Virus record (IMG/VR): IMGVR_UViG_3300035698_010358
Location: 1 to 64,000 of that record
Origin: a virus
Strand: one strand, 5' to 3'
Length of the DNA stretch: 64,000 nt
Shown in pieces: positions 21,788 through 42,899 of the stretch (within the stretch, counting starts at the first letter, position 1; each line of letters starts with the position of its first letter). Position numbers and translations under genes: made by a program. Below the pieces are notes generated by a model, which ran no database searches, was not told the origin of the DNA, and was given only the letters and a program-made list of their open reading frames with translations.

Positions 21788-22467
21788 CTGATGCTTTAAA
21801 AAGAGAGATTAAGGAATCCTTTGAAGAGGGTTCCCTGAAAGTCCTTAGCGTGAACCCAGATTCTTTAGAGCCCTCTTTAGAATCGGTTACTGATGTTATG
21901 AGGCATCTTACTCCTCATAAAACAATTTTGGATGTTGAGACCTCACAGGGGCATACTGTTACGACTGAAGATCACAGTTTGTTCATGGAGGATATGTCTA
22001 CGGTACCAACTTCTGAGTTGCAGGTGGGGGGTTGTATTGCTTGTATTCAGAACGGGGTCTATCAACCGACCCCTATTCTGGGCATTTCGGAAACGTTGAG
22101 GGAACAATATACTTATGATTTATCTGTCCCTTCATTTGAGAATTTTGTCTTGTCCAATGGAGTGGTTGCACATAACTCATATAGCATAGGGGGAGTGTCC
22201 TTAGATATCGATAAATCTGCCAAATATGAGTCCTTAAAGCAGAATGCTGAGGGACAACTGACTTTGGCCACCGAGGCCAAGCAACGGACAGTGAAATTCA
22301 TTCGTGGGCTACAGCAGCCCAGATTCGGGATGGGTGTTAGGTCGAGTTTTGGCCCGTTTGTGGGGAAAGGTATACTTAGCCCTCGTAATTTCGTGGCTTG
22401 GGCTTCTGTTATATTAGTACCAGCTTTGATGTTTGTTAGTTCTGCTAACAGTTCAGGTTTGGTCTAG
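21781..22467 (+). CDS. Fractured gene, piece 3: 132-aa intein C-fragment plus 96-aa extein
   Basis: TTEDHSLF (block B), YTYDLSV..ENF (block F), VVAHN|S at 22176/22177. Confidence 0.85.
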   Translation: MLTDALKREIKESFEEGSLKVLSVNPDSLEPSLESVTDVMRHLTPHKTILDVETSQGHTVTTEDHSLFMEDMSTVPTSELQVGGCIACIQNGVYQPTPILGISETLREQYTYDLSVPSFENFVLSNGVVAHNSYSIGGVSLDIDKSAKYESLKQNAEGQLTLATEAKQRTVKFIRGLQQPRFGMGVRSSFGPFVGKGILSPRNFVAWASVILVPALMFVSSANSSGLV

Positions 22468-22679: not shown

Positions 22680-23477
22680 ATGGATAAAGCATCTTTTACT
22701 TTTAATGAGAACTGGTTTTTCCCAGATCCTCCTGCTCGGATTGAGAATCTTCTTTATATGGCACAGAAAGTTGACCCTAGTGCTCATGTGGACGATTCTC
22801 AATACCAAAATAAAGTGGTGGTAGATAAGAAAAAGGCACCAGCCTTAATTAAGGTATTCGAATCCAAAGGAATGTTTGTGTCTGAAGAGAAACGTGGGGC
22901 CTACAAGGTGTTGTGGGGTAAAAAGCGGGCAAACGAGAGTCAGGGTTTACGTGGCCATGTAGAGAAATTAGCCAATGAGAACCCAGAGTTAAGGGGGCAT
23001 CTGGTTCCTTTGTTGAAACAGGCTGCAACACAAAAGTTTAATCCTGAGATGATCTCAAAAGCTAAGAAGCTCCTAAATACTATGAAAAATTATGGTTGGC
23101 AGTGGGGTGATGACAATCTGAAAGAAGTTTCTCGTAATGGGGAGTTTTATTTTTCACAGATGAGTCCTCATAATGCTCCTTGGGATGATGAAGAGGATTT
23201 CAAAACATATGTCCCTCCTTTTCGGGCAGGGCAGCTTTTTCGGAAATATAAAGTGGAGGACCACGCTGGATTGGTAGCAGTTCTTCATAAATTGCAGGAA
23301 CAGTGGAAGAAGGATTCCTTTAAGTTTTCGAGGGTTGTAGGTAAAATTACCCCAAAGGATGCTGATGTTAAGTTATTGTTTAACCCTGACCGTCAAGGTA
23401 CACTTTTTGCACAGGTATATGTGAATGCCCAGCCTTACCTAGAGTGGACAAGTCATCGTGCTAAAGAGGAGAAGTGA
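22680..23477 (+). CDS. Two-domain protein with internal LANENPELRGHLVPLLK tag
   Basis: AAGGAG RBS; shared tag. Confidence 0.7.
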   Translation: MDKASFTFNENWFFPDPPARIENLLYMAQKVDPSAHVDDSQYQNKVVVDKKKAPALIKVFESKGMFVSEEKRGAYKVLWGKKRANESQGLRGHVEKLANENPELRGHLVPLLKQAATQKFNPEMISKAKKLLNTMKNYGWQWGDDNLKEVSRNGEFYFSQMSPHNAPWDDEEDFKTYVPPFRAGQLFRKYKVEDHAGLVAVLHKLQEQWKKDSFKFSRVVGKITPKDADVKLLFNPDRQGTLFAQVYVNAQPYLEWTSHRAKEEK

Positions 23478-24308: not shown

Positions 24309-24764
24309 ATGAGTTTCCGAGATAAAATAGCCAAATTGGCCAATGAAAATCCTGATGGGGTTAGAAAGCACTTAGTCCCCATTCTGAAACAGGCTGGTAG
24401 TGGTATCTATCAAATTTTCTTTAATATGTTTAAGAAAGCCTTTAAAGAATCTTGCACTGATCTATATACTCAATTCTACCGTGATTACAGTTGGGATAAC
24501 ATTGAAGGGGTGTCTTCGAGTATCAAACCTGGGCTTTGGGAAGTAGTTTCCAAGTATGGTCCTATGGTTGCAGTTTTTTATCACGCACAACCTACAAAAC
24601 TGACTATTACTTGTAGTCTTTTAAATCTTCACCACAAAATGGAAGAAGAGAGACAGATTATTTCTCTGGAGACTTTTCTAGCCCGTGATATGACTGAGAA
24701 AGATATGCAAGCTCTTATTATGAAATTCGTTATTAGCTGTGCTAAGAAGACCTGGAGAGGATAA
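24309..24764 (+). CDS. Protein with N-terminal LANENP..LVPILK tag
   Basis: AGGAG RBS; MSFRDKIAKLANENPDGVRKHLVPILKQA. Confidence 0.7.
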   Translation: MSFRDKIAKLANENPDGVRKHLVPILKQAGSGIYQIFFNMFKKAFKESCTDLYTQFYRDYSWDNIEGVSSSIKPGLWEVVSKYGPMVAVFYHAQPTKLTITCSLLNLHHKMEEERQIISLETFLARDMTEKDMQALIMKFVISCAKKTWRG

Positions 24765-28398: not shown

Positions 28399-28781
28399 CG
28401 ATGCCTCGTATAAACTACAATGGGCTACCTATGGGAAAACCAAAATGAATGATTCAGGTTATAAAATTGTCCACTTGACAGAGGACCCTGAGCAGTTAGC
28501 TTTCCAGACTCTTTATGTTATTGGAGAGAACGGGCATTTCTGGCATGTGGTGTTCAACTGCCCTTGTGGTTGTGGAGCCATTATTGCTCTGAATTTACTA
28601 CCTGACTCTTCACCACAATGGAAGCTGGATGAGAAAGGCCCTACATTAACTCCTTCCATCAACAGTACTACTGGTTGTCGAAGCCATTTCGTATTAAAGA
28701 ATGGCCGAATTAACTGGTCATAGAATGAATAACGATGCCTCGTATAGACTACAATCGAATTCGGGCTACCTATGGGAAAAC
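28396..28781 (+). repeat. Imperfect direct repeat (28396-28440 and 28730-28781) flanking the DUF6527-like gene
   Basis: TAACGATGCCTCGTATA(A/G)ACTACAAT[CGAATTC]GGGCTACCTATGGGAAAAC. Confidence 0.9.
28445..28723 (+). CDS. DUF6527-like zinc-binding protein
   Basis: FNCPCGCG..LNL..W..PTLTPSI..GCRSHF..GRINW. Confidence 0.75.
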   Translation: MNDSGYKIVHLTEDPEQLAFQTLYVIGENGHFWHVVFNCPCGCGAIIALNLLPDSSPQWKLDEKGPTLTPSINSTTGCRSHFVLKNGRINWS

Positions 28782-29349
28782 ATGGGCAAAGACCGGTGAA
28801 ATTGAGTTAGATGATAGTATTCTCAAGTTGATTGGGGAGACTCTCGTGTCCGTAGTCAAAATCGAAGCTAAGAATGAATTCGTGAAAAGAGAATGGTCAC
28901 AGGATGACCCTATGGGAGGCCCGCCTATCGGTGAGTCTTTCAAGTATGAGATTCTGGGAGAACGGACAGTTGTTCTTACATCTACCTTCTATGGGTTGGC
29001 TCAGTTGACTTCCAAGGAAGGTATCCCTGAACGGAAGATGACTTGGTTGACTCAGCAGGGGCAGATGAGGAATATCCAACCTCCAAAAGAGTTTGGCAAG
29101 ACACCTAAAACCAAATCAACATCTTCCAGTTCATCCCCGTTAGTGGTTCCTTTGACTACAGATACTGGGGAAGTTATTTTCAGGATGGCACCTCTACGGA
29201 CGGCAGATGCTTGGATTCATCCAGGTATCGCCCGATTCAATTTCATGGAGAGAGCTGTCAAGAAAGCAAAAGCCCAAGTTGATACAATCATGACCGAATA
29301 CTGCGGCAACATTATTAGTGCCGGGATTGCTGAGGCATTTAATGGTTGA
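28735..29349 (+). CDS. Putative neck/tail-completion protein
   Basis: AWIHPGIARFNFMERAV; synteny. Confidence 0.5.
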   Translation: MPRIDYNRIRATYGKTWAKTGEIELDDSILKLIGETLVSVVKIEAKNEFVKREWSQDDPMGGPPIGESFKYEILGERTVVLTSTFYGLAQLTSKEGIPERKMTWLTQQGQMRNIQPPKEFGKTPKTKSTSSSSSPLVVPLTTDTGEVIFRMAPLRTADAWIHPGIARFNFMERAVKKAKAQVDTIMTEYCGNIISAGIAEAFNG

Positions 29350-29962
29350 AGCTAGGATTATTTGTACCTGCCCCTTTATCGGGATACCTGATTTAGGGTT
29401 GACCATGAAACGTGGTCAATCTGCCATAATCCCTGAAGAAAAAGCTAGATCTTCCAAGGATTTACAGATTGCTGAAAAAAACGGTGGGGTGACTGTAGCA
29501 TATATTAAGAGATTCCAAGAACTTAAACCAGCCCTAGAGACTGTTCCTCGTAAAGTTCCGTTGCCACCTTCTATACGGCAACCTAACCCACCTCCTGTTG
29601 AAGTCGTCAGGGTAGAGAAGATGACTCTGGATGAGGATGCCTTGGTGGAGAAATTGGCTGCTAAGATGAACTCTTTACGTGATGGCAACACGAATGCCCT
29701 GATAGATTCTCTGATAGGGGAAGTTCAGTCTATGAGGGAAGATATTGCAAAAGGACAGCAGAATCCTCAGATTGTGAGGGAGGTTGTTCGTTCTGAGGGT
29801 ACAGTAAAAGAAGATGTCCCCATGTTCATTCCCAAGACTATTATGGGGAAAGATGCTGAGGACGTTAAGATAGAGATTAAAGAAACTACTTCAGAAGGCA
29901 CTGTGGATGAGGCTTCCAAAGCCTTACGTGCTTTACGGAAGAAAAAGGAGAAGAAATCATGA
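29342..29962 (+). CDS. Hypothetical protein coupled to the actin-like gene
   Basis: Overlaps both neighbours; basic C-terminus. Confidence 0.6.
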   Translation: MVEARIICTCPFIGIPDLGLTMKRGQSAIIPEEKARSSKDLQIAEKNGGVTVAYIKRFQELKPALETVPRKVPLPPSIRQPNPPPVEVVRVEKMTLDEDALVEKLAAKMNSLRDGNTNALIDSLIGEVQSMREDIAKGQQNPQIVREVVRSEGTVKEDVPMFIPKTIMGKDAEDVKIEIKETTSEGTVDEASKALRALRKKKEKKS

Positions 29963-30993
29963 CAGACGATAAAAAACCTGTGGAAACACCAGTTCCGGCA
30001 GCTTCTATTCCTTTCGGGGTTGGCCTCGACATCGGGACCATGAATGTCGTATCGGCCCGTCGTGGAAAAAACGGCATCACCTCCAAACGGATGAGAGATG
30101 TCTTCATTGACTTACCCCTTAGTGCCAAGAAGATGCTGAGTCTGTCTTCCACCAGCTTCGTTGAACGAGAAGACGATATTTTGATTCTGGGAGATGCTGC
30201 TTTGGAGACGGCCAATGTTTTCGGGACCCCTCCACGTCGTCCACTCTCTGACGGGATTATCTCATCCTGTGAGATCGATAGCTTGGAAGTTCTCGGAATG
30301 CTCATCAAGAATGTCTTGGGAGAACCGAGGGTGAAAGATGAAGCATGTTATTTCTCCGTCCCGGCAGACCCAACGGATTCTGACAAAAATATTATTTATC
30401 ATCGTGGTGTGCTTGAACAAATTATAACAGAGTGTGGGTATACCCCTTATGCTGCTAATGAAGCTATGGCTATTATTTATTCAGAGACTGCTAAGGAGGG
30501 GTTTTCTGGGATCAGCCTATCTTTTGGATCGGGTATGGTAAATGCTGCTTTGTCTATTAACACCATTGAAGGTCTGACGTTTTCCACTTCTCGATGTGGA
30601 GACTGGATCGATGCTGGTGCTGCCAGTTCCGTCGGCCAGACTCAGGCTCGTATCTGTGCCCTGAAAGAGAAGGGCTTCGACCTGATGAAACCTGAAGGCC
30701 GTGAACAAGAAGCTCTGGCCTTCTATTACAAGTCGGCCATCAACTATGCCCTAGACAACATTGAGGAACGGTTCAAGGCCATCCAGAACAAGTTCTCCTT
30801 GTCCAAGCCCATCCCCATCGTGGTATCGGGTGGTACAAGCCTGGCTGGGGGATTCATGGACTTCTTCAATGACGTTTTCAAGAAACGGAAGAAGTTCCCC
30901 ATCGAGATTTCTGATATTCGACATGCTCAGGAACCTTTGAATGCTGTTGCCTATGGACTGTTAATTCAAGCCATCCAAGAACACGAGGATTAA
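29959..30993 (+). CDS. Actin-like ATPase (MreB/ParM/MamK superfamily)
   Basis: Phosphate-1 GLDIGTMN, NEAMA, phosphate-2 LSFGSG, adenosine VVSGGTS, terminal NAVAYG. Confidence 0.85.
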   Translation: MTDDKKPVETPVPAASIPFGVGLDIGTMNVVSARRGKNGITSKRMRDVFIDLPLSAKKMLSLSSTSFVEREDDILILGDAALETANVFGTPPRRPLSDGIISSCEIDSLEVLGMLIKNVLGEPRVKDEACYFSVPADPTDSDKNIIYHRGVLEQIITECGYTPYAANEAMAIIYSETAKEGFSGISLSFGSGMVNAALSINTIEGLTFSTSRCGDWIDAGAASSVGQTQARICALKEKGFDLMKPEGREQEALAFYYKSAINYALDNIEERFKAIQNKFSLSKPIPIVVSGGTSLAGGFMDFFNDVFKKRKKFPIEISDIRHAQEPLNAVAYGLLIQAIQEHED

Positions 30994-30998
30994 GTAAA

Positions 30999-31880
30999 AT
31001 GGGTTCTGTCAAATTTGCATATTCAAGCGATCCCAGAACACGAGGGTTAAGTGAGAAGGATTTTATTGAGTTTACACATTCTAAAGGCATTACATTTTTG
31101 CCTGCTTTGAGAGTAGTAGCCAAGATGTTTTTCGGAATCCCTTTGGATGATACAAACTATTTCGAGATTGTTACGGATTGGGGTTCGGGAACCACCGAAA
31201 CATTCACGGAAGCCTCTTATTTGAAATATCTTTATTTGGATGGTAGATGCAACGTATCTGAGTATAGAGAAGGTGGCTTCAAGGACGTGGTTTTGTGTGC
31301 GGGACGCCGTTCTGGGAAAACCCTTTTTGAAGGAACTCTGGCTTCCTATTTTTATACCCAAGCCTGTCGGATGGATAACCCGAAGCCTATTTCCATATGT
31401 TGCCCAAATAAAGACACGACTGGTCAAGCTATGCATGAGATTAACCAAATGATCCCGAAGTGTGGGAGTAGAAGAACTCTTTCTTATATGATCCACGAAG
31501 AAGGTGCTAAGTTGCTGGCTGTCTCGGTTTATTCTAAAAAGTTGCTTGACAGTAACTTTCAACTGGCCATTCTGGATGATCTTGAACAGGCCCTCGCGGG
31601 AAAACATTCTGAAATTTATAATCATGTAGCCAACTCACGTCGTGTGGTGGCTACAACTCCGAAATTCCTTAAAACGAAAAAAGATTTCTTTCATCAATTG
31701 ATGACCTTAGACGACCCTGACACAATCAGGTTCCAGATCCCAACTTGGGAAGCAAACCCCTCTATCCCTACAGAAAAACTCAGAAGGGATTTTGATCGTG
31801 ATCCTCTTAGTTTCCGACTGGAGTTTGGGGCCGAACTCATTACATCAAAAGGGCAGGCTGCCCAGACGTTGGATGACTAA
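30999..31880 (+). CDS. Terminase-large-subunit-like ATPase domain without nuclease domain
   Basis: Walker A CAGRRSGKT, Walker B LAILDD, ATTP, IPTWEANPS...FRLEFGAEL, then stop. Confidence 0.75.
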   Translation: MGSVKFAYSSDPRTRGLSEKDFIEFTHSKGITFLPALRVVAKMFFGIPLDDTNYFEIVTDWGSGTTETFTEASYLKYLYLDGRCNVSEYREGGFKDVVLCAGRRSGKTLFEGTLASYFYTQACRMDNPKPISICCPNKDTTGQAMHEINQMIPKCGSRRTLSYMIHEEGAKLLAVSVYSKKLLDSNFQLAILDDLEQALAGKHSEIYNHVANSRRVVATTPKFLKTKKDFFHQLMTLDDPDTIRFQIPTWEANPSIPTEKLRRDFDRDPLSFRLEFGAELITSKGQAAQTLDD

Positions 31881-31881
31881 T

Positions 31882-32463
31882 ATGGCCGATAAAGTTAAAG
31901 TTCAGAGAGTGACTCTTACCATCCATGAAGAAATGGTTCCCGTGGATTCTAATAATCCAAGTCATGTGGCTCTGGCGGAACGATTAAGTCAGCCTCATGT
32001 TCATGATATTAAATCCTACCGTATAATGGAAATCCCAAAACCTAAAACAGGTGTTGTTGAATTTACAATTAAGGGGTTTAGTTATTATAAAAATGAGAAA
32101 CCATCATGTAAAAAGAAGATGAAAGCATCTAATGAAAACGGACCTTATGTTGCAATACCTGTCCCTACTGTTAGAACTCCCTTTGACTGGTTGTCTGATG
32201 AGTTTACCCAGATAGAAAAATCTGACATCATAGTGAAGGATGTTGTGATGACTCCTTGTTTTTGGGGGATTCTTAAAAAAGATAAACTTTTTAAGGATTC
32301 TTGTGATTTGGGTAGCAATGAGTCTTGCCACATTGGGTATGTGTGGGGGGCTCGTGTTTGGTTATCTGAAGCTGTTAGTAGGGAAGCCTTAGTGTATAGA
32401 GAAAACGATCCGAATTTCCTAAAGGATTGGCCAGCTTTTGCTAATTGGGGTATGGAGGACTAA
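31882..32463 (+). CDS. Protein with C-terminal capsid-protein-like fragment
   Basis: LSDEFTQIEKSDIIVKDVVM...VWGARVWLS aligns with MCP LADAFSLIERHDLRVARVYM...LWGAQIVTS. Confidence 0.7.
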   Translation: MADKVKVQRVTLTIHEEMVPVDSNNPSHVALAERLSQPHVHDIKSYRIMEIPKPKTGVVEFTIKGFSYYKNEKPSCKKKMKASNENGPYVAIPVPTVRTPFDWLSDEFTQIEKSDIIVKDVVMTPCFWGILKKDKLFKDSCDLGSNESCHIGYVWGARVWLSEAVSREALVYRENDPNFLKDWPAFANWGMED

Positions 32464-32464
32464 T

Positions 32465-32737
32465 ATGCCTACCGATAGAGAATCTGCTCGACTCAAGAAA
32501 GTCACTGTCACCATCAAAAAGGAATGGGAGCCAGTAAACCCAGACAATGCTGAGGATGTAGCCCTGGCTGCCAAACTCAGTGAAGTCCCCGTAGTGTGGA
32601 ACATGAACCCGAAGAAAACGAGTATGAGCCAGAAACGGGAAGTGAGTCATTTCATAGATGCTGGGTCAAAAGAAAACGTGGAGATGGGTGTCGGCCCTAC
32701 AATGGCTACTGTCTCTGGGGATCTGTTGGACGAATAA
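32465..32737 (+). CDS. Small paralog of the 31882 N-terminal domain
   Basis: KKVTVTIKKEWEPVNPDNAEDVALAAKLS versus QRVTLTIHEEMVPVDSNNPSHVALAERLS; GGAGG RBS. Confidence 0.7.
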   Translation: MPTDRESARLKKVTVTIKKEWEPVNPDNAEDVALAAKLSEVPVVWNMNPKKTSMSQKREVSHFIDAGSKENVEMGVGPTMATVSGDLLDE

Positions 32738-32817
32738 TAATTAATATGGAATAAGAAATAAAGGGTACTGTTGTTCTGTGAGTTCGTTGGATAATGAGAA
32801 TTAAGAAGGAGGTTACG

Positions 32818-33165
32818 ATGAAAACATTACAAGAAATTGAAAATGGTTTAACGGCTAAAGATTTTTTAGAGGTTTTGAAAAAATTGCTGGACAAACAATT
32901 AGATGGTTTTGTTCATACAGAGTATTTAAAACAGTTCATGGATGCTTATTGGAAACATTATGATGAGAAGGGTGGGGTTGGTAAAATCGTTATGGACTTG
33001 AAAACTTGGGATGATTTTAGGAAAGCCACCCGGAACGATCCTAATGTTGAGATAGAATCAAAAGCTACGAACCTAAAAAAAGGTTTGATGGGGACTTGGG
33101 ATAAAATACCGATTTTTATTTCCTCTTTGTGTGAAGGATTAGTATTTCATACCGAAAAGGATTGA
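32818..33165 (+). CDS. Small capsid-protein-like fragment
   Basis: AAGGAGG RBS; VEIESKATNLKKGLMGT versus MCP LDIESQATLLKTGLMAT. Confidence 0.75.
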   Translation: MKTLQEIENGLTAKDFLEVLKKLLDKQLDGFVHTEYLKQFMDAYWKHYDEKGGVGKIVMDLKTWDDFRKATRNDPNVEIESKATNLKKGLMGTWDKIPIFISSLCEGLVFHTEKD

Positions 33166-33223
33166 TCTGGTCTAATAGAATAATCCCCCTATGTACCTCC
33201 CTTCTATAGGGAGGTACATTTGA

Positions 33224-34423
33224 ATGTACTTTAGATTAACAGAAGCTTTAAAGCGTCGGCTTATTATGGAATTGAGGAATTACTGGCAATACCACCCTCT
33301 TTATCCAGACCTGCCTGATCATATTATTGGGAAATACTCTTTCAGAGAACGCCCCTCAACAGGTATCATTGTCAAAACTGGCGGTGGTAGCCATGTAGCT
33401 TTGTCTGCCGACAATTACCTAGGCATCCAAGAGAGTTATGTTAACCTGACCAAGTACAAGAACAAACCAGGCTTGGCTATTGAATGGGTTCGAGAAGATG
33501 CCATTGCCATCCAGAAGAATGATGGGGTTTTCCCTTCTCCTCCCGGTGTCTATTACACCCAGCTAACAGAAGACAATCAATTTTATGTGGATGCTCTCGT
33601 TAACATCTATAATGAGATTCTAACCCCTATAGATACCTTCACGTACTCGATGACTCAGACTCCGTTGGAAGGGACTATTCGAGTCTTTGAGATGCCTGCC
33701 CGTTATCAATTGCTTGAGGGTGAGAACTACACCGTTGAGTTGGACGGCCAAGGAAAACCCACAGGTGAAATCACTCTAACACAAGCTCTGACAGGCAACC
33801 GATACTTGGTTGTAGATTATAAACACCCAATCGGTTCTCAGGGTCCTTACACCATCGACCCCGGTTTTGCAAACAACACTGCTATCCCTGGAGTCGTTCT
33901 GGCTTTTGGCCGACGAAATAAAAAAGGAGATATTCAAGCAGTGGTTGTAGAGGACGTTCGTAGAGCAGCCTCTCAGATATATGGGGGCAAGTGGGAAATC
34001 TCAATGGAGTTCGATGTGGTGGCCAGAGATGTGTTTGCTCAACAGGAAATTGCTGACCAAACTGTCATATATCTCTGGGGGATACTTAGACCTCGATTAT
34101 CTTCCGAAGGTATTGAAATGTCTGAGATTTCTTTGGGTGGTGAGTCAGAAGAAGTTTACGATGAGAGTGGTGATGATTATTTCTATAACTCCTCGTTTTC
34201 ATTAACAGTTACGACTGACTGGGAAGTTCATATCCCGTTAAGTGCCTTCCTTCGTCAGGTTACTCCTGCCAGCCGTGCCTATGCCGAATATTTGGCTTCA
34301 ATACCAGATGAACAATTAAGACAAGCAGGGGCCGGAATACGCCAAGCCAATGAGATGGGGTTGGAAGTTATGAGGGACCCATATTTTGTTGGAAGGACTG
34401 CTAATTTCGAAGTAGTTCGTTAG
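33224..34423 (+). CDS. Putative tail terminator/completion protein
   Basis: GGAGG RBS; upstream of sheath; ISMEFDVVARD..QQEIAD..YL pattern. Confidence 0.55.
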   Translation: MYFRLTEALKRRLIMELRNYWQYHPLYPDLPDHIIGKYSFRERPSTGIIVKTGGGSHVALSADNYLGIQESYVNLTKYKNKPGLAIEWVREDAIAIQKNDGVFPSPPGVYYTQLTEDNQFYVDALVNIYNEILTPIDTFTYSMTQTPLEGTIRVFEMPARYQLLEGENYTVELDGQGKPTGEITLTQALTGNRYLVVDYKHPIGSQGPYTIDPGFANNTAIPGVVLAFGRRNKKGDIQAVVVEDVRRAASQIYGGKWEISMEFDVVARDVFAQQEIADQTVIYLWGILRPRLSSEGIEMSEISLGGESEEVYDESGDDYFYNSSFSLTVTTDWEVHIPLSAFLRQVTPASRAYAEYLASIPDEQLRQAGAGIRQANEMGLEVMRDPYFVGRTANFEVVR

Positions 34424-34463
34424 TCCTTTAATTTTTCACCCATTCTAAGAGAGTGGAGGAACA

Positions 34464-34913
34464 ATGCCTTTATATTCATATCAATGTAGTTGTGGGATTC
34501 GTTTTGAGGGATCGGCCAGTATGGCCAAACATGCCGATCCAAAAGAATGCCCAGAGTGTGGGAAAATGTCTGAACGATTGATGCCAACAGATGTGAATGG
34601 GGTCTTCAATCAGGAAGTTTCAGGACCCGTCCCTCAGAATACTGGAGTGGATAGTTTTGATGCTCATATTGATAGAGTAATTGGTCAGTCTGCTGAACAA
34701 GGACGAAAAGCTCATGTGGCTCGGGTAGATACCAAAAAAGAATTACTGCGGGATAATCCCGGAGCAACTGGAAAAGATATCACGAAAACTTCTGACGGGG
34801 GATTTCATTTGATGTCTTTAGAGGAAAGAAATGCCCGAGATGCCGCTCTATCCATCAATAATCAGGCTATGAACGCCATACAACAGGAGAGGATGAAAAT
34901 CACTCCAAAGTAG
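34464..34913 (+). CDS. FmdB-family zinc-ribbon protein
   Basis: MPLYSYQCSCG..FE...CPECG. Confidence 0.8.
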   Translation: MPLYSYQCSCGIRFEGSASMAKHADPKECPECGKMSERLMPTDVNGVFNQEVSGPVPQNTGVDSFDAHIDRVIGQSAEQGRKAHVARVDTKKELLRDNPGATGKDITKTSDGGFHLMSLEERNARDAALSINNQAMNAIQQERMKITPK

Positions 34914-35091
34914 AAACTAGACCATAAGTGGTCGTGGACAAAACATACATATGGAAATACTGACAACCAACTTGAGCTTGATAACCGCCGTAGGCTGGAG
35001 AAACAGACGAACTAACTGATGAACAGATTGAATAGTTTGAGCTGAAACTCCGCAATAACTTGTGGAATGAACCGAATTTAAGAGGTGTACA

Positions 35092-38000
35092 ATGGCATTT
35101 CCTGGTAAATCATACGCACCACCAGGCGTCTACACGAGAACGCTTTTCGAGAACCCCCTTTCTGGAGCTATCGATAGTTTCAAGATTCCGATTTTTATCG
35201 GTGAGGGAAACGAACACCTGGTTCAGAAGAATCTGGAGGTCGTTCGAGGGTCGTCCCGGGACATCGATCAAAAGATTGTCGGTGAAGACGAGGCTGGTCG
35301 TGCTGTAGTCAGTGTTACTCAGGCAGGTGTAATCACCTTGGGTGACTTTGACGGAACTTTGGACAAGATTCAAGTCCGTAAATACCCCATCACTGACGGT
35401 CAAGGTTCGGGTACAACCACGAACAGCCGTTCCGATGTGGTTGTCACCATCAACAATCAGATTATGGTTGTTCGACAGGTGGATGGGGCTACTGGTGTTA
35501 TTAAATTGGCACAGCCTCCGCGGGTCACGGATGAAGTCCGGGTCACTTACTTCTTCAAACGAACGGATACTCTGACCACTGATGATGTCAGTGACCAAGT
35601 GAATCCTGATCCGGCAGTCGTTCGGGGTGTTAACGGTATAGCTGATGTAGACTCCCCGGTCGGACAAGAAGGCTCGATTGGTTCTGGTGCAGTCATTGAC
35701 TTGCACGGGGATATCACCAATGCCTCTGGACAAGTTGTCGTTCCGGCCAACAATGTTCTGAATCTGGTTATCGACGGTGTGAAATACACTATTACCCTGG
35801 CTGCTCGGAACGATTATACGATGTCTCAGATTGCTGCTGCTATCACAGCAGCCAATAAGGGTACTCTGACAGCCAGTGCTTTCATCAATAATTTTGGCCT
35901 TTCTGCACTTTTATTGAATGCCAGCGGTAGCATTGTCGTCAGTGCCGGTTCAGCCAATGCTCTTTTAGGACTCATTACGGGTTCTGCTGACACTCGAACC
36001 TCAACTTTCTATACCTTCGAAGGTCCCATCGTAGATGGCTCCAACGGTGGTGTAACGACTACTGATCCTGCTAAAGTGGTGGTCAAGGTCAATAACACTC
36101 AGGTCATTCCCGTATCGGTGAATGGTTCTACACGGGCAGTCACTTTGTCAGCAGCTCCTAAAGCTGGTGCTACTGTGACTATTCAATACTGGTTCAACGC
36201 TTGGCAGGATACATTTGATTACCTGCAACATAATGGGATCACTGAGATTACTAAGTGTGGTGTGGCCCCTGAGTCCAAGTCCTATGTTCAGGAAACAGAT
36301 TTCGTCCTGAAAGACGATAAAATCGTCTGGGGTACAGCAGCTCTGGTTTCCAGCGGGATCCATACATCAGGTGCTTCCTTGTTTGGGGAAACTCAAATCA
36401 CCAGTACTCTGATAGACAATAAAACGTTCCTCTCAACTTGTACACCAGTTGTGCAGAGCAGTGGTGGTATTTCTTCCGATAACCGGATGGACTTCACACT
36501 CCCCTTCCAGCCGACTCTCGGTAATGGGCGAAATACCCCCTTGGGTCAAAGTCTGTTCCAGACGGTCAGCAACGGACGTATCGACCTTCCGACCAACCGC
36601 CCAGACGTGGTGGATGTGTATTGGGGTTATGATGTTCAGGATGCCCTTGACCGTGGCAAAGTGGAAGTGGACAAAGTAGAAGGTATTACCGTTTCGTTGG
36701 CTGAATCCGTTCCCGTCGGAGCAATAGTATTTGCTTCCTTCTGGTACAACCTTCTGACAGATGAAGAGTACACCATAACATGTGTGAATCCTGGGGCTTC
36801 CGGTTCTGGTACATACACCATCATTGACAAAGGTGACTCTGAAGTCTACGGTGTCACACTTAACACTGGCACCAAGGGTTCATCCCTTAACGGTGTCACC
36901 CTTGAATTCCCATCAGGTTCCGAGTTGACCCCTGATCTTCACTTTGAAGGTTTGTCTGGTGACGACTTTGTTGGCCCTGTTGAAGAAATCGTGACAGTAC
37001 AGTTTTCTTCCCGTGTGGCTACTCCTGCAAAATGGACGATGCCTGGTGCAGGACCTTACGAATTCATCAAGAGTTACTCCGACAGACTCAGAATTAAACT
37101 GCACACCTACGAATCCGTCGGTGTTGTGGGCCTGAACTTGGATAACCCTTCTGGTAGTGCGGCTATTGCAGGACACGGTGGTGGTTTCTTTGCTTCCGTT
37201 GTCGGTGACGAGGTGGATTATACAGGTGGTGTTGGTGCAACAATCGGTCAAAGTTATTCTTTGGCTGCAGCCGAAGACTTCTACCTCCAGGTAGATGATG
37301 CCAATATCCTGGTGAAAACATCCAGCACGGTGACAGATGTGGATGTCAGCTATTTTGCCGATGTCATCAATGAAGCTGCAAGTGGTCATCAGGCTTTGGC
37401 TTTGACAGGAGGTTCTAACGTAATAGGGCTTCCACATACCAAGTCCGATGTAAATAACTACTACGTTGGTTGGAGAGTGGTCATCGGTAACCATGCTCTC
37501 AGTGGTGCAACACCGGGCCAATACAGGACTATCACAGCTTACGATGGTACAACATGGGAAGCTACAGTGGATTCTGCCTGGGCTGGTGGTTCTGTTTCTG
37601 TAAACACTCCTTACTACATCTATAACCCAGATGCTCGTTCCACAATGGTCGGTGCAACTGAGTTCAACGGCCCCGTGACAATCACAGCAGGTGCCCATGA
37701 TAAATTGAACTTTGCTTACATAGGTGATGTTGTTTCGGTTGCTTTCGAGATTACATTAACACCTGGAACTTATGCTACTCCGGTCTTACTTGCTACCGAA
37801 GTCCAAGATCAGATTGATACTGAACTTGCTGCTGCTGGTGCTGCTGCTGCTGGTCTGAACATAGAATGTACGGCCAATGCTCAAGCCAAGTTGCAATTTA
37901 AAATACAACATGCTGGTTTGAACGCCGCTGGTTACATCCAGTTCCTTGATTCTACCAGTTCTCCTGATGAAGACTTTGCAGTCATCGCAGGGTTGGACAC

Positions 38001-40410
38001 TGGAGCATCTACTGGTGATGGCCAGGCAGCTTTACTTCAAGCTCCTATTGCTCGATCTTATCTCTGCCCAACGGGTACAGGTTCTCGGAAACTGTACGAT
38101 AGACTTATTCTTCGGAACCGTCTGTTGCCTGGTGGTGGTCCTTTCAGCAGCATGGATGCCCACGACATCGAATCCCAGATTCAGCTCCAAGTTCTGACGG
38201 GTAACACCAAAGCAGGATTGGAATCAGGTCTGTATGGAACAGCTGCTCGTTCAGCTACAGTTCGACCTTCCACTATTAGTGGGCAAGTTGGCTTCGTAGG
38301 TGGCATGGACGGTGATGGTGAGCCTTTGGTCATCTTCTATGATGGTGCAGGGACAGTGGCAGCTAACAACATTCTCAAGTTCGATGTGGATGGGACTCCA
38401 GTTGAAGTTATCTTCGATGCTGATTCCACGGGGATATCTACTAACCTCGGCCCCATTTCGGATGACGACTCGATTCTGGGTCAAATCAAAGTGGCAATGG
38501 CTACCGTACCGGGTGCTCCTTTCGGGGATGCAGCCAATATCGTCAGTAGCTTCTACCTGCGACAAGAAGGTGCAGGGTTCCGTATCACTGGTGTTGAAAC
38601 TAGCAGCAACTCTAAGGTTTCTGTTGGCTCGGGTTCGGCAAACGGTGTGTTGGGTATTTCTTCTGGAACAGTAGCCCTTCGAAACACGGTATCTGTCAGG
38701 AAGCTGGCTTCCGCTCTGATGGCTAACAGACATGCAAACTTCACGACTTGGTTGCTGACTCTTGCTTCTGCCGACCTTTCCTTCTCCCGGGATGGTTTGG
38801 CTAGAGTAGAAGAAGATGCAGTGGGTGCTCAATATCTCTACTTGCAGGATGCTCCGACAGTCGTATCCGAACTGGGATCTCAGTCTTCAGTTGAAGTCCT
38901 GAACACCCAGAGCCAGATTGACGATGCCTTGGCTTATGACACGGGTCTGAATGCTAAAGAAGGTGATGGTGCTTCTGGTGAACCTGCTTTGGATGGTTTC
39001 TTCGTGAAATCTAGTATTTCCGATGGTTCTGGTTCTATCAACGAATCCCAGCTTAACCCTTCCGGAGACGGAACAGGTCAGGACGGAATCGTTGGTCAAA
39101 CCTACCGTGATGAAATCACTGGCCTGACATTCACTCTGCTGCCTCGTGGTTGGAGTACCGACCCGAATGGCCCGTGGCTCCAGTACCCAACAGGAACTAA
39201 CTCCACGTTCCGTATCCAGGTTAGTAAGTCGTTCACATCGGATGCAAACATACCTCATAATGCCCTTAACGGTGTCGAGCTGACCGTAGCAAATACCGTA
39301 GGCGTTGGTGTTGAGGATACAGCAACGGTAGAGACTTTCAAACGTGGTGGAAATGAACCGTCTATCGGTGACTTGTACTACACTTCGTACATCTACCAGA
39401 AACAGGACTTTGCAACGGCATTTTACACCAAGATGTTTTCCATCGAACAGGCTTACGGAAGTATCGGAGTAGATTCTCCCTTAACACTGGCTTCTGACTT
39501 GGCAGTGCTGAATGGTGCCATTCTGGTGGGCCTGAAGCAGATTCCTCGTGAGTCTGGTGAACCTTATGCTAGCCTGATAGACTATCGTGATGCTATCAAA
39601 GAACTGGAAGGCACACTTCCAGGCTTCGTAAATCCCGATATCATCACACCACTTCGCGGTGATTCATCGGACTTGTATCAGTATCTGAAACAGTCTAATG
39701 AACTGATGTCTTCTATCCGGTACAAATCGGAACGAACTTCCATCATCGGTATGGCAGCAGGTTCTTTACCTGAAGCATGTGGTGACTTAGCCCAGTCCCT
39801 TGAAAACACTCGTATGCGGTTGGTTTACCCAGACTTTGCAGTGGTTTCTATCACAGATGCTTTGGGTAACAGTACAGATGAGTTGATGGATGGCCCAATG
39901 CTGGCAGCAATGTTGGTAGGTTCCGTGGTGTCCCCGAACCTCGATGTGGCAACCCCGTGGACAGGCCGACGATTGGTTGGGGCCCGGCAGCTAGGACGCA
40001 ACCTTGATGCCGTTGAACAGAATTTGTTGGCTACCAAGGGTGTTACAGTTCTCGAAGACAAACCTCCGTTCATTCGTGTACGACATGGTTTGACAACGGA
40101 CATGACGAATGTTCTGACCAAACTGCCAACCATTGTCTTGATCGCAGATGAAGTTCAGCGTCAATCCCGACAACTCTTGGAAAACTTCGTGGGAATCAAG
40201 TTCCTGCCTGGTATCCTGTCACAGGTTGAAGGCCGGATGGCAATGCTGCTCAAACAGTTGGTGTCTGCTCAGATCATCACAGCTTACACAGGTATCAAAG
40301 CATCTGTAGCAGCAGATGATCCAACCGTTGCCGAGGTAGAGGCTTGGTACAGTCCGGTTTTCCCACTTTTGTATATGGTCCTGACTTTTCACCTCCGGTC
40401 CTCACTTTAG
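35092..40410 (+). CDS. Contractile tail sheath protein (1772 aa)
   Basis: N-terminal YAPPGVYT; C-terminal RVRHGLTTD...YSPVFPLLYMVLTF; many inserted beta domains. Confidence 0.85.
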   Translation: MAFPGKSYAPPGVYTRTLFENPLSGAIDSFKIPIFIGEGNEHLVQKNLEVVRGSSRDIDQKIVGEDEAGRAVVSVTQAGVITLGDFDGTLDKIQVRKYPITDGQGSGTTTNSRSDVVVTINNQIMVVRQVDGATGVIKLAQPPRVTDEVRVTYFFKRTDTLTTDDVSDQVNPDPAVVRGVNGIADVDSPVGQEGSIGSGAVIDLHGDITNASGQVVVPANNVLNLVIDGVKYTITLAARNDYTMSQIAAAITAANKGTLTASAFINNFGLSALLLNASGSIVVSAGSANALLGLITGSADTRTSTFYTFEGPIVDGSNGGVTTTDPAKVVVKVNNTQVIPVSVNGSTRAVTLSAAPKAGATVTIQYWFNAWQDTFDYLQHNGITEITKCGVAPESKSYVQETDFVLKDDKIVWGTAALVSSGIHTSGASLFGETQITSTLIDNKTFLSTCTPVVQSSGGISSDNRMDFTLPFQPTLGNGRNTPLGQSLFQTVSNGRIDLPTNRPDVVDVYWGYDVQDALDRGKVEVDKVEGITVSLAESVPVGAIVFASFWYNLLTDEEYTITCVNPGASGSGTYTIIDKGDSEVYGVTLNTGTKGSSLNGVTLEFPSGSELTPDLHFEGLSGDDFVGPVEEIVTVQFSSRVATPAKWTMPGAGPYEFIKSYSDRLRIKLHTYESVGVVGLNLDNPSGSAAIAGHGGGFFASVVGDEVDYTGGVGATIGQSYSLAAAEDFYLQVDDANILVKTSSTVTDVDVSYFADVINEAASGHQALALTGGSNVIGLPHTKSDVNNYYVGWRVVIGNHALSGATPGQYRTITAYDGTTWEATVDSAWAGGSVSVNTPYYIYNPDARSTMVGATEFNGPVTITAGAHDKLNFAYIGDVVSVAFEITLTPGTYATPVLLATEVQDQIDTELAAAGAAAAGLNIECTANAQAKLQFKIQHAGLNAAGYIQFLDSTSSPDEDFAVIAGLDTGASTGDGQAALLQAPIARSYLCPTGTGSRKLYDRLILRNRLLPGGGPFSSMDAHDIESQIQLQVLTGNTKAGLESGLYGTAARSATVRPSTISGQVGFVGGMDGDGEPLVIFYDGAGTVAANNILKFDVDGTPVEVIFDADSTGISTNLGPISDDDSILGQIKVAMATVPGAPFGDAANIVSSFYLRQEGAGFRITGVETSSNSKVSVGSGSANGVLGISSGTVALRNTVSVRKLASALMANRHANFTTWLLTLASADLSFSRDGLARVEEDAVGAQYLYLQDAPTVVSELGSQSSVEVLNTQSQIDDALAYDTGLNAKEGDGASGEPALDGFFVKSSISDGSGSINESQLNPSGDGTGQDGIVGQTYRDEITGLTFTLLPRGWSTDPNGPWLQYPTGTNSTFRIQVSKSFTSDANIPHNALNGVELTVANTVGVGVEDTATVETFKRGGNEPSIGDLYYTSYIYQKQDFATAFYTKMFSIEQAYGSIGVDSPLTLASDLAVLNGAILVGLKQIPRESGEPYASLIDYRDAIKELEGTLPGFVNPDIITPLRGDSSDLYQYLKQSNELMSSIRYKSERTSIIGMAAGSLPEACGDLAQSLENTRMRLVYPDFAVVSITDALGNSTDELMDGPMLAAMLVGSVVSPNLDVATPWTGRRLVGARQLGRNLDAVEQNLLATKGVTVLEDKPPFIRVRHGLTTDMTNVLTKLPTIVLIADEVQRQSRQLLENFVGIKFLPGILSQVEGRMAMLLKQLVSAQIITAYTGIKASVAADDPTVAEVEAWYSPVFPLLYMVLTFHLRSSL

Positions 40411-40454
40411 TCAATGATTTCAGGCACTTACATAGCTTGAATAAAGAACTTGAT

Positions 40455-40497
40455 AACCTCCTAGGGTCTTGCTAATATGACCCTAGGAGGTTTTTTT
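40455..40497 (+). terminator. Rho-independent terminator
   Basis: AACCTCCTAGGGTC/GACCCTAGGAGGTT stem plus T7. Confidence 0.85.
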
Positions 40498-40935
40498 ATG
40501 AACATCCCACAATTTAATAAAGCAACAGAAGAAATTTTACCCGTCTCCCTTACCTGTGCAAGTATTCGAACGGAATGTGTACAGGCTTCAATCCAATCAC
40601 GAATGGAAGTGAGGGGTCATTGGGTCTGTGAAATAACAGAGGTTTTAGAAAACACATTTACTGCAAAAATCACTGGAGATAATGATCATCCTACTGATAG
40701 GAATTTTGCCACATTTCAAAATAATAACATATTAGATCATGAAAAAAAACGGATACAACTCGGATCCCGGTTTTATTGGGATATTGGATATGAAACATGC
40801 CCCACAGGTCAACGTAAGATTTTCTCCGTAGTTCATTTCCGAAGGTTTCCGATATATATTGAGTCTGATTTCAGGGAAGCAGAAGAAAAAAGTAAAAACC
40901 TTGTAAGGCTATTCAAAAAAGCTAAGACTATTTAA
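40498..40935 (+). CDS. Hypothetical protein
   Basis: GGAGG in the terminator stem precedes the ATG; 145 aa. Confidence 0.55.
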   Translation: MNIPQFNKATEEILPVSLTCASIRTECVQASIQSRMEVRGHWVCEITEVLENTFTAKITGDNDHPTDRNFATFQNNNILDHEKKRIQLGSRFYWDIGYETCPTGQRKIFSVVHFRRFPIYIESDFREAEEKSKNLVRLFKKAKTI

Positions 40936-40936
40936 G

Positions 40937-40971
40937 AAAAAAGCCCCGGCCATTACGGTCGGGGCTTTTTT
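40937..40971. terminator. Bidirectional terminator between convergent genes
   Basis: A6-GCCCCG/CGGGGC-T6. Confidence 0.9.
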
Positions 40972-40986
40972 CTTGGTCTCTGAGGA

Positions 40987-42759
40987 TTAACCCTCATCTA
41001 CGGGGTATTTCTTTTTCATATTCACGTCACCGAACCCCAAGTCTTTTAAGCTGTTCTTCATTGAGGCTCGGATGGCATCCGATGCTTTGATGATACCAAA
41101 AGTTACAGCATGGGCAATGATTTCATTGAGGGTGTAGTCGGTATTTTCCAACAGTAGGTTAATGTCTTTCTGCATCAGGTTGTCCGGGAAAAGAACAACA
41201 TGGACGGTAGAGGGGCATTTTTTGTTATCCAGGTCTTCTTTCACGAGGGTCTCCAAGGATTTCTTTTCAAGAGCTTTTTCAGCTACGGTGGGAGTTTTTA
41301 CGAGATCTGTCACAGAAGAGATTGGGTAGTCTTTTTCCGTGATAGGTTCCAAATTGACGGCATGTCCTTGTGAGATAAGCCATCCAACCAAATCCTTAAT
41401 AACTTCACAGGTTTGGTTGATGTAGGATTGAGGGTTGTTGTGGTATGTGTTTAGGAATCTCACTACCTGGGTTTTCGTGATTTTATTGACCTTGGAAGTT
41501 CTCCCCATATCTATGAGGAATTGTGGGATGGTTATTTGGTGGTGTGTTGTACCTTTGGTTTTGAAGTTGTTAGGGTCTTCATCAAGATATCCTCTAACAG
41601 CTGTTTCCAAGAATATAGAGGCTGCTGTTTCCTTGTGTTTTTCTATCCCCAGTTCTTCTTTTGAAGGCAGTGAGACATCGATCAATTCCTTAGCTTGGAG
41701 CCATGAAAAAAACTGTTTTAAGATCGAGTGTTTTGATCTCAGTGTTGATTTTTCATATCTGAAACTTGCTGATTTAAAGTACAGTTCCAGAGAGTGTTCT
41801 GTGATCTCCTTGGTATTTACGATGTTTGCGGATACGGTCAAGAAATTTACAAGATCCTCCACAGAGAATTTGTGTTGGTCTTTCGTACCCTGTTTGGATT
41901 TCTGGACTCTTAGAGGAAGGTCTGTGAAATATTTCTGAACGGCTTTATTCAGAGTCATATCTTTTGAAACATCGGTTTCTATTTCTGGTGCCACCGTTAT
42001 TTCTTGGGTGCTTAACACGTTGGACACGTTTTGGGTTACTATTTCCTTTGTTTTTGGGGGTTTTGTATCTGTCCCAAATAAGCCTGAAAGCTCCTCGATA
42101 CCGTCAGAGCGGTGGTCGAAAGGGATTTCATCTTTTCCTGGGGTGTATTGATATTTTGTGCTTTCTTTTCCCATGTTGATCTCCTTTATATTTCCGTCAG
42201 TTATAAGCATTTTGATTCCTTTTTTGGCATCTGTTTCTGAGAGGTTATAGAAACTCCTTATGTCTATGAGTGTTGGGTTTTTGGGGTAATAGTCTCTTTC
42301 TTCTTCATTGAAACAGTACCTGATGTAGTTTTTGATAATTTTCTTTGGCCATAGGCGTTTGAAGTCAGGGGTGAAGGGGTCGATTTTGAACCCAGGACTA
42401 AAACAAACTTTTTCTATGCGGTTTCTCAGCCAATCTGTGGGTTGATATTGAGTTTCTTTATATCTCGTCAATATCTTGATAAAACCTTTACCAGCCATTT
42501 TCTTGAGGTATTTTTCCCTGGAGTCTGCCCTCAATTCTTTAACACGAACAGGCCGGTTCCAGTTTTTGTTGGCATAACCGGGGTCTTTTAATTTGCCTTT
42601 TTTGAAAGCATCATCTTTTTCCTTTTTTTCTTGTTTCAGGAGATTATGGATTTCTTTTTCTGACCAGCTTCCGTTATAGCCGTCCCCTGCCTTGAGTGTA
42701 ACACATGAGATTTCCAACCAGTGCATGTTTATGTAAGTGTAAGTTGACATTTTTTTCAA
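40987..42759 (-). CDS. Multidomain DNA-binding protein: winged helices plus two integrase core-binding-like domains, no catalytic domain seen
   Basis: EITEHSLELYF..YEKSTLRSKHSILKQFFSWL and KITKTQVVRFL..PQSYINQTCEVIKDLVGWL; only credible minus-strand gene. Confidence 0.6.
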   Translation of the reverse strand: MKKMSTYTYINMHWLEISCVTLKAGDGYNGSWSEKEIHNLLKQEKKEKDDAFKKGKLKDPGYANKNWNRPVRVKELRADSREKYLKKMAGKGFIKILTRYKETQYQPTDWLRNRIEKVCFSPGFKIDPFTPDFKRLWPKKIIKNYIRYCFNEEERDYYPKNPTLIDIRSFYNLSETDAKKGIKMLITDGNIKEINMGKESTKYQYTPGKDEIPFDHRSDGIEELSGLFGTDTKPPKTKEIVTQNVSNVLSTQEITVAPEIETDVSKDMTLNKAVQKYFTDLPLRVQKSKQGTKDQHKFSVEDLVNFLTVSANIVNTKEITEHSLELYFKSASFRYEKSTLRSKHSILKQFFSWLQAKELIDVSLPSKEELGIEKHKETAASIFLETAVRGYLDEDPNNFKTKGTTHHQITIPQFLIDMGRTSKVNKITKTQVVRFLNTYHNNPQSYINQTCEVIKDLVGWLISQGHAVNLEPITEKDYPISSVTDLVKTPTVAEKALEKKSLETLVKEDLDNKKCPSTVHVVLFPDNLMQKDINLLLENTDYTLNEIIAHAVTFGIIKASDAIRASMKNSLKDLGFGDVNMKKKYPVDEG

Positions 42760-42845
42760 TCCTTTTGTTTATAGTCCAATTAATTGTCAGTGTTTCTTAT
42801 ACCCTAAAAAAAAGGAATTTTTATTTTGGGGTATGAAAACAGTTC

Positions 42846-42873
42846 TTGACAGTGGCTAGAAAGTGTGTATTAT
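42846..42873 (+). promoter_or_regulatory. Sigma70-type promoter
   Basis: TTGACA-16 nt-TATTAT upstream of the MerR gene. Confidence 0.65.
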
Positions 42874-42899
42874 AGAGAGGCATGAAAGGAGTTTTGCCG

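Follow-up and report, generated by a model that had tools for sequence, protein, structure and literature searches.

Phage T4 has retained a duplicate of its major capsid protein (MCP) gene whose product, the vertex protein gp24, is a full-length HK97-fold subunit and becomes part of the shell, and gp16 of phage phi29, a terminase-type ATPase of about 300 amino acids (aa) without a nuclease, is catalytically intact and serves as the sole packaging motor of its phage. Viral mimics and decoys are represented by the poxvirus K3L pseudosubstrate, the filovirus secreted glycoprotein and the phage Tad and Acb sponges. Here, we describe a locus which bears some likeness to each of these systems, located at positions 30994-33223 of the first 64 kb of the 72,158-bp IMG/VR virus record IMGVR_UViG_3300035698_010358 (hereafter the window, that is, the whole 64,000-nucleotide (nt) stretch analyzed). 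Its four genes, denoted B to E, encode a homologue of the ATPase domain of the large terminase TerL (B), two proteins homologous to one segment of the phage's own MCP (C and E) and a small protein related to the N-terminal part of C (D), and we consider it highly probable that they form a selected accessory cassette of TerL- and MCP-domain derivatives.

Like phi29 gp16, B is a terminase-type ATPase of roughly this size lacking a nuclease; unlike gp16, it is an extra, divergent copy carrying lesions, in a clade that has a full-length TerL. C, E and their relatives, collectively termed minis or mini-MCPs (C-type and E-type genes with an MCP-like module), differ from T4 gp24 in being single-segment fragments, variable in number and dispensable. 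The likeness to viral decoys and sponges, which are shortened or altered versions of a recognized protein, or binders, and lead an immune receptor astray, holds at the level of concept only, as accessory and fast-evolving elements. In the main texts of the papers searched, we found no phage reported to use a fragment of its own capsid or terminase as a decoy, nor were MCP proteins consisting of the A-domain only, or TerL paralogues consisting of the ATPase only, found described there.

The record is 14% complete according to CheckV, which implies a genome near 500 kb, and judged from its sequence the phage is a phage-G-like huge phage. Five large relatives (G001-G005, IMG/VR records of 234-536 kb, G001 being complete at 536 kb) and the corresponding loci of three closer relatives (L051, L052 and L058, the last a 1,087-bp metagenome contig) were used for comparison; L052 is identical to metagenome locus L060. 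Window genes at 1706-29962 and 33224-52807 are collinear with G001:143835-90573. Between these blocks, next to a volactin-family actin homologue on the left and a conserved gene of the structural block, F, on the right, the relatives' slots are either empty or differently filled (Table 1), so that the coordinates of B to E delimit a lineage-specific insert almost exactly. The interval 30994-33223 is most probably a lineage-specific accessory cassette in a hypervariable slot. All open reading frames (ORFs) of 29959-34913 lie on the plus strand and are tightly packed, and the adjacent ORFs are intact, as described in the initial annotation.

The slot borders themselves are well conserved. F is 59% identical in G001 and 82-89% in L051/L052, and adjoins volactin in G002, G003 and G005. 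Volactin is 51-64% identical in the latter three genomes, 79-87% in L051/L052 and 98% over 64 aa in L058, and is absent from G001 and G004; the flanking genes of L051 and L052 are 82-91% identical to those of the window. Among all slot variants, B occurs in the window only. Short contigs identical to the B-E region were found in DNA runs of several studies that bear the label salt lake metagenome, with identical short contigs carrying B in three salt-lake runs. Searching with window positions 28700-34500, slots of the window type (with B), of the L051 type and of the L052 type were all found in salt-lake runs X1-X4, which belong to different studies. In runs X3 and X4, contig ends run on into L051-type and L052-type versions of the slot, indicating that slot variants co-occur and that close huge-phage relatives with differing slots coexist.

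All statements on folds made here refer to sequence profiles. The phage's MCP matches phrog_2522 (E 1.6e-50), NCBIfam NF042927 (E 2e-43, above the cut-off) and PDB 6WKK (E 4e-62), and it is 75-91% identical to the MCPs of G001-G005; its identity with the MCP of Tunturiibacter phage Tunturi_5 is 50%, and with phage G gp27 it is 38%. C is the ORF listed in the initial annotation with a refined start, and the start of E was moved from 32794 to 32818, as indicated both by a strong Shine-Dalgarno site and by P0010, a gene call in the database. C consists of an N-terminal D-like domain (approximately residues 1-75) and a C-terminal mini-MCP module beginning at 32119, in which the MCP-homologous segment (∼32185-32436) matches MCP 164-248; the same fusion of a D-like domain to an A-module is present in P0006/L058 at 57% identity. 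The MCP-like segment of E covers ∼32929-33162. In pairwise alignments, residues 108-169 of C (numbered from 31870) match MCP 166-229 with 29% identity (E 8e-5), and residues 62-101 of E (numbered from 32794) match MCP 180-217 with 43% identity (E 1e-6). The range of about 164-229 originally given for these two ORFs was accurate. Profile comparisons were considerably stronger: hhalign gave 95.8% probability (E 7e-9) for the C family against MCP 164-248, 99.1% (E 1.4e-18) for the E family and 98.8% for all minis together, and a mini-MCP profile searched against 177,635 PDB sequences retrieved phage G gp27 (6WKK, residues 158-241) at E 4e-13, the runner-up lying at E 2. At profile level, C and E both contain the core segment of an HK97 MCP A-domain, and no alignment of either to MCP was obtained beyond 164-251 (N-arm, E-loop, P-domain, spine helix).

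Compared with the phage G-type MCP (gp27, 6WKK; NF042927), C and E share the 85-residue segment corresponding to MCP 164-248 with its core hydrophobic and signature residues; they differ in length (115-193 aa versus 290) and in that N-arm, E-loop, spine helix and C-terminal strands cannot be aligned. Across 11 minis (10 mini-MCPs and an A-domain fragment of G001), a set of MCP core positions is kept in 8-11 members: F170 (9/11), E174 (10/11), V180 (11/11), W219 (9/11), Y235 (8/11) and P247 (9/11), along with G213. The MCP-invariant residues H176, L178 and R249 are replaced in all 11. The window's E is the most deviant member, departing at five of the seven best-kept core positions and lacking the family's C-terminal tail. 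E-type minis score higher against the MCPs of their own clade than against those of Tunturi_5 or phage G, which places their origin within the clade. Their base composition is lower in G+C (0.39 for C and 0.34 for E) than that of the flanks (0.44-0.49). Only six paralogue pairs were found at E 1e-3 among 85 gene proxies of the record, MCP-E being one of these; fragment paralogy is therefore not a general feature of this genome.

The family is rare. Seven mini-MCP proteins were found among 5.8 billion clusters, and a search of 1.84 billion representatives with E returned four proteins, namely E itself, two repeat-like sequences (dropped) and P0013 (used); P0013 gave no related locus in metagenome contigs. 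No mini-MCP gene was found in 50,697 deposited phage records, where the matches were full-length MCP genes only, and the Protein Atlas returned no usable match for C.

B matches phrog_2 at positions 280-452 of 807 (E 3e-4), which is the ATPase part only. B has homologues of ∼290 aa, and a profile built from B and five homologues matches the TerL ATPase domain of P74-26 (PDB 4ZNI) over residues 40-262 of 274 (E 1e-3) and reaches its terminal E-x-G-A-E-F motif, 13 residues beyond which B stops. The protein ends exactly at the boundary between ATPase and nuclease domains, as the initial annotation had proposed in describing a TerL-like ATPase that stops before the nuclease domain, and the matches to MCP and TerL on which that annotation depended are strong at profile level. 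For relatives, the phrog_2 E-values range from 1e-9 to 1e-26. Full-length TerLs of the clade span phrog_2 278-625 (ATPase and nuclease) and carry the D...HDDxxDA nuclease motifs; short copies cover 275-456 only, and B has an ASCE P-loop TerL ATPase domain (phrog_2, 4ZNI) and no nuclease domain. Shared with 4ZNI and the clade TerLs are the P-loop ATPase, a clade-specific N-terminal region (GIPLDD), Walker A, QIPTWE and E-x-G-A-E-F, whereas B lacks the RNase H-like nuclease, lies in an accessory slot rather than at the terL locus and has just 25-30% identity with each of the TerLs and short copies set against it, the clade TerLs being mutually 48-64% identical.

Whereas Walker A is intact (GRRSGKT), the conserved P-x-Q glutamine of TerL is lost in B (PAL, leucine) and Walker B reads ILDD instead of ILDE. 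The Glu-to-Asp exchange at Walker B abolishes activity of T4 gp17. Among the full-length TerL rows, the Walker B D-E pair is present in 22/22, the glutamine in 20/21 and GK[T/S], or GK followed by an intein, in 20/21, the exceptions being two long-branch proteins (L030 and L033); deviations in P-x-Q, Walker A or Walker B occur in 6 of 9 distinct short copies. From these motifs, B is probably non-catalytic. Its ORF is uninterrupted and keeps 33 columns invariant with homologues that are only ∼30% identical. Because B is so divergent and is absent from the four close slot variants, it was probably acquired into the slot rather than duplicated in place. The original designation of the cluster as truncated self-paralogues is doubtful for B. 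A locus search with B alone returned nothing, and related loci were found with the profile of B and its five homologues. In a FastTree phylogeny of ATPase domains (36 rows after five exact duplicates were dropped), all short copies sit on long branches, compatible with one origin or with several. For phage G, PMC12484599 reports that no TerS was found.

Rates of non-synonymous (dN) and synonymous (dS) substitution were used to ask how these genes evolve. Between the window and L058, E is identical at 83 of 104 residues (dN 0.124, dS 0.69, dN/dS 0.18), C has dN 0.273 and dS 0.96 (dN/dS 0.28), and the 3' end of volactin (62 codons) has dN 0.007 and dS 0.81 (dN/dS ∼0.01); at such high dS (0.7-1.0, saturated in some L051/L052 pairs) the dN/dS values are rough. 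Relative to L051/L052, C has a dN of 0.27-0.31, D one of 0.21-0.40 and E one of 0.77-1.1, as opposed to 0.05-0.17 in flanking genes, with dN/dS below 1 and dS near saturation. D has orthologues in L051 and L052 at 54-64% identity (dN/dS 0.26-0.33) and is absent from L058. C-type genes are intact in the window, L051, L052 and L058 and in further metagenome proteins. By these measures, the rate of change in C and E exceeds that of MCP and the flanking genes several- to tens-fold, yet both are under purifying selection. Neutral decay, which had been named in advance as fatal to the original proposal, is rejected for C, D and E by values of dN/dS below 1 together with intact ORFs; for C and E, the low ratios come from a near-identical relative and the ORFs are intact in four to five genomes. 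Relatives without minis have MCPs that are 75-91% identical, implying that the minis are dispensable for assembly.

Table 1. Features of the slot and its surroundings, with slot contents in relatives (positions refer to the window).
Feature	Positions	Strand	Description	Basis
MCP	7481-8353	+	290 aa, HK97 fold, parent of mini-MCP modules	phrog_2522, NF042927, 6WKK
Volactin-family actin homologue	29959-30993	+	left slot border	PF25216, E 4.8e-70
Tandem duplication	30964-31077	+	57 nt, over the volactin/B junction	repeat search, 75% identity
B	30999-31880	+	293 aa, TerL-like ATPase domain without nuclease domain	phrog_2, 4ZNI profile
B/C junction	31870-31884	+	TGGATGACTAATATG (stop, 1 nt, start)	repeat search
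C	31882-32463	+	193 aa, two-domain protein	profile and pairwise MCP matches
D	32465-32737	+	90 aa, paralogue of C's N-terminal domain	domain shared with first ∼75 residues of C
E	32818-33165	+	115 aa, second mini-MCP	profile and pairwise MCP matches
Hairpin	33191-33219	+	12-bp perfect hairpin pairing F's Shine-Dalgarno, right end of slot	inverted-repeat search
F	33224-34423	+	399 aa, conserved gene of structural block, right slot border	synteny
Slot in window			B, fused C, D, E	
Slot in L058			fused C-type gene (57%), E (83/104 residues); without B, without D	
Slot in L051			57-aa ORF, short C-type gene, D, E-type gene	
Slot in L052 (= L060)			110-aa ORF, 60-aa ORF, C-type gene, second C-type gene, D, E-type gene	
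Slot in G002, G003, G005			empty; volactin-F gaps of 14, 118 and 7 nt	
Slot in G001			volactin absent; ∼380 bp at syntenic place	

The junctions of the slot carry traces of its history. The second copy of the 57-nt tandem duplication is the 3' end of volactin read in another frame and now forms codons 8-26 of B, and the 15-nt B/C junction recurs at the C/D junction (32453-32467) with 93% identity; by their arrangement, the duplication and the repeated junction are marks of recombination. The hairpin at the right end has a folding energy of -23.9 kcal/mol (z -3.5) and holds the Shine-Dalgarno of F in its 3' arm. Shorter and weaker versions with the same CCUCC/GGAGG pairing are present in L051 and L052, and the structure may control translation of F.

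D, which lies between C and E, was not listed in the initial annotation. It stands alone in L051/L052, is fused to the A-module in L058/P0006 and is present in both forms in the window. A reading of D as an MCP fragment is not supported: for the D family, hhalign pointed to MCP 18-72 (E 0.45), and HMMER with the N-terminus of C gave a weak match to MCP 244-282, matches that are mutually inconsistent and not significant. For D, the Protein Atlas yielded only small viral clusters and tail-tube fragments at 0.92-0.95, to be taken as leads only. The 57-60-aa ORF preceding the C-type gene in L051 and L052 resembles an MCP N-arm by eye but is not significant, scoring -0.7 bits against up to 7 bits for shuffled sequences.

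Other searches for B to E were negative: megablast of 24 kb of the window against 50,697 phage records and NCBIfam gave no match for these genes, Pfam gave chance-level rows only, and Rfam over the whole window and a tRNA scan had nothing in them. Signals from a promoter and terminator scan did not exceed those of shuffled sequences. No related locus was found for volactin in genome contigs. The volactin family is described in haloarchaea, and a phage-encoded member lies here inside a structural gene block, in a phage from salt-lake metagenomes.

ATPase-only copies of TerL, ∼280-390 aa in length, are found in at least five contexts. G001 encodes a separate 343-aa copy at 318.8 kb that is 47-50% identical to clade TerLs, L013 (392 and 316 aa) and L020 (328 aa) carry short copies directly upstream of full-length terL, and ATPase-only metagenome proteins measure 278-295 aa. 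Near its short copy, G001 also holds pieces resembling MCP: an E-loop-like one at 313.3 kb, an A-domain-like one at 323.3 kb (hidden Markov model E 1e-14) and a weaker A-domain-like one at 307.6 kb. Three of the 5-6 MCP-fragment ORFs of G001 fall within ∼11 kb of the ATPase-only copy, for which chance is of the order of 1e-3 if uniform placement is assumed, accessory genes clustering anyway. By gene content, G001 holds a cluster analogous to that of the window. Two G001 ORFs (L049/L050, G001:312934-313602 and 321049-321657, minus strand) begin with Tat-like signal peptides, as read by eye, and contain short MCP-like segments that are E-loop-like and 'LWGAQIVTSRLVP'-like. N-arm-like ORF starts at 323804-324750 of G001 (E 0.0012 and E 0.24 in an eight-sequence database) are a lead only.

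A full-length TerL-like ORF of 612-1068 aa is present elsewhere in each of G001-G005 (612-651 aa in G002, G003 and G005). In G001, terL lies at 151771-153732, upstream of the head genes, and from this synteny the window's own terL would very likely be a separate gene ∼8-10 kb before the first base of the record, which represents ∼14% of the genome; no second TerL-like or nuclease-like ORF was found in the 72-kb record. Full-length TerLs of the clade are 605-684 aa long, and some reach 1060-1448 aa with an insert after the P-loop. In the latter (L013, L020, L024-L027, L029/L032), ∼440 aa are inserted directly after the Walker A lysine (GK/C), with two such inserts in L029, and from their position these are probable inteins.

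As for what the cassette may do, its genes share with viral decoys the combination of being accessory, variable among close relatives and fast-evolving yet selected, and we regard a function in conflict, be it with host immunity or with rival phages, as somewhat favoured. B, C and E are domain-sized derivatives of two proteins at the core of virion assembly, derivatives that would not assemble themselves and are probably non-catalytic, C and E representing stand-alone copies of the MCP A-domain segment (MCP 164-248), and D a small partner domain fused to the A-module in C. Since fused and separate forms alternate, D presumably works with the A-module, and given the position of the cassette its products would be made together with the late structural proteins. 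They may act by mimicry, each binding a partner of its parent domain. In the mechanism ranked highest, this would amount to competitive antagonism or shielding against host sensors that recognize monomeric MCP (the capsomer-forming face of its A-domain) or the TerL ATPase domain. Such a mode of action is the most attractive because the parent domains are surfaces bound by immune sensors: according to PMC13581612, Avs7, Avs8 and Avs10 bind the MCP A-domain at the interface by which capsomers form, and according to PMC11564622, KpAvs2 binds the TerL ATPase domain.

Taken as a whole, an accessory cassette acting by mimicry in conflict is our best explanation, held tentatively and with less than even confidence. 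That the cassette specifically antagonizes sensors is doubtful, and its most explicit form, counter-defence by self-mimicry, in which A-domain copies, D and a crippled TerL ATPase would occupy NLR-like sensors (of the Avs type and others), or hide their epitopes, without triggering them, is unlikely as it stands. Several points weigh against these proposals. According to PMC13581612, isolated core segments of the tape measure protein and polymerase are necessary and sufficient to activate some Avs sensors, so that a mimic might trigger immunity instead of blocking it. PADLOC found no match of B to E to any defence or anti-defence family. The intact Walker A of B leaves room for residual nucleotide binding or activity, B is known from one genome lineage only, the substitution ratios of the remaining genes are rough for the reason given above, and the Tat-like starts of two G001 ORFs point to other, extracytoplasmic uses of MCP pieces. 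The initial interpretation of the locus as a candidate immune-decoy island of truncated self-paralogues is supported in part: none of the three outcomes named there as refuting was found at sequence and profile level, the self-paralogy of B is doubtful, and the decoy function stays that of a candidate.

Alternatively, the minis and B could act on phage proteins rather than on host sensors and interfere with assembly and packaging, either as dominant-negative or capping subunits that poison the capsomers or motors of co-infecting relatives (superinfection exclusion, competition) or as brakes or chaperones that act on MCP and TerL monomers of the phage itself. We judge this to be rather unlikely. 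A-domains pack against each other in HK97-fold capsomers and inactive subunits are classic poisons of ring ATPases, both of which count in its favour, and B retains an ATPase core with lesions in its catalytic motifs. The variability, fast evolution and dispensability of the genes, the presence of close variants in the same salt-lake metagenomes and the placement of the short copies in L013 and L020 directly upstream of full-length terL also fit such interference. However, with the MCPs of relatives being 75-91% identical, a poison could hardly be directed against rivals without also harming the capsid of the phage that makes it, and the mere 25-30% identity of B to clade TerLs argues against co-assembly.

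A role of the A-domain-like proteins and D as minor structural or morphogenetic components specific to a sub-lineage (decoration, vertex or internal parts of the very large capsid) is improbable. MCP paralogues with structural roles exist, for example T4 gp24, and the location of the cassette within the structural block, on the same strand and tightly coupled, as well as purifying selection on C, D and E, would be expected of such proteins. Yet the cassette is missing in relatives whose MCP is 75-91% identical, copy number and content vary even between near-identical phages (volactin 98%, C 57%), and the retained segment is without the N-arm, E-loop and P-domain, by which subunits are held together in the lattice. 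Moreover, B would be left unexplained.

Similarly low is the probability that the genes, above all B and possibly E, are functionless debris of duplicated or imported late genes heading for loss. The restriction of B to one lineage, its lesions in P-x-Q and Walker B, the recent illegitimate recombination shown by the 57-nt junction duplication and the repeated junction motif, the deviations and missing tail of the window's E and the low G+C of C and E are all compatible with decay. Against it stand the conserved E orthologue and the dN/dS ratios of E and C given above, the intactness of C-type genes across four slots and further metagenome proteins, the 293 uninterrupted codons of B with their 33 columns invariant at ∼30% identity and the recurrence of ATPase-only copies in at least five contexts.

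Finally, the possibility of a large terminase that is split or fractured, with B as its N-terminal half and the nuclease half nearby, is suggested by B's end at the domain boundary, by the absence of a full-length terL from the 72-kb record and by another window gene that is fractured by a split-intein-like insertion, but is close to refuted, since none of C, D, E and F is nuclease-like in family and profile searches (F matched nothing there and is a conserved neighbour of volactin in three relatives, each of which has a TerL of 612-651 aa), B is not present in the closest relatives and reaches no more than 30% identity with clade TerLs that are themselves 48-64% identical, and G001 synteny places terL upstream of the record start, so that the event in which B would be half of the only terminase, named from the outset as one that would undo the decoy proposal, is very unlikely.

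Some further features of the window lie outside the slot. Three ORFs in three frames at 20034-22467 correspond to one continuous gene of G001 (117679-117149); the outer two have matches to intein-splicing domains and the middle one (20837-21787) encodes a homing or REase_MTES_1575-type endonuclease, an arrangement which we take to resemble a 'fractured gene' containing a split intein. Compared with G001, the window has a second insert (40477-45787), which lies between a 1772-aa ORF and position 45943 and contains ORFs with an integrase SAM-like domain (40987-42759, minus strand), a MerR-type helix-turn-helix (42882-43286) and, in an 834-aa protein, VIT and von Willebrand A domains (43283-45787). 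The 1772-aa ORF itself (35092-40410; 56% identical in G001, 89% in L051) has no Pfam match, and its C-terminus may correspond to a tail-sheath C-terminal domain. Two zinc-ribbon proteins (12622-13011 and 34464-34913) have their first 40 residues in common, and the ORFs at 22680-23477, 24309-24764 and 8468-8812 share an N-terminal module that also heads the 110-aa ORF in the L052 slot.

No phage proteins are more conserved than MCP and TerL, which hence are favoured targets of the pattern-recognition immunity of bacteria and archaea, and the cassette offers a concrete candidate answer to the question of how phages escape such recognition without altering essential proteins. If counter-defence by self-mimicry were true, this would be the first phage known to turn pieces of its own conserved virion proteins against immunity, and its hypervariable slot would be the site of an arms race. 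Should the decoy idea prove wrong, the ∼120-aa A-domain-only family would still represent an HK97 A-domain that stands alone and is under selection, TerL pseudo-enzymes reduced to the ATPase are recurrent in the clade, and the structural modules of huge phages contain a defined hypervariable slot, of a kind that is useful for finding conflict genes.

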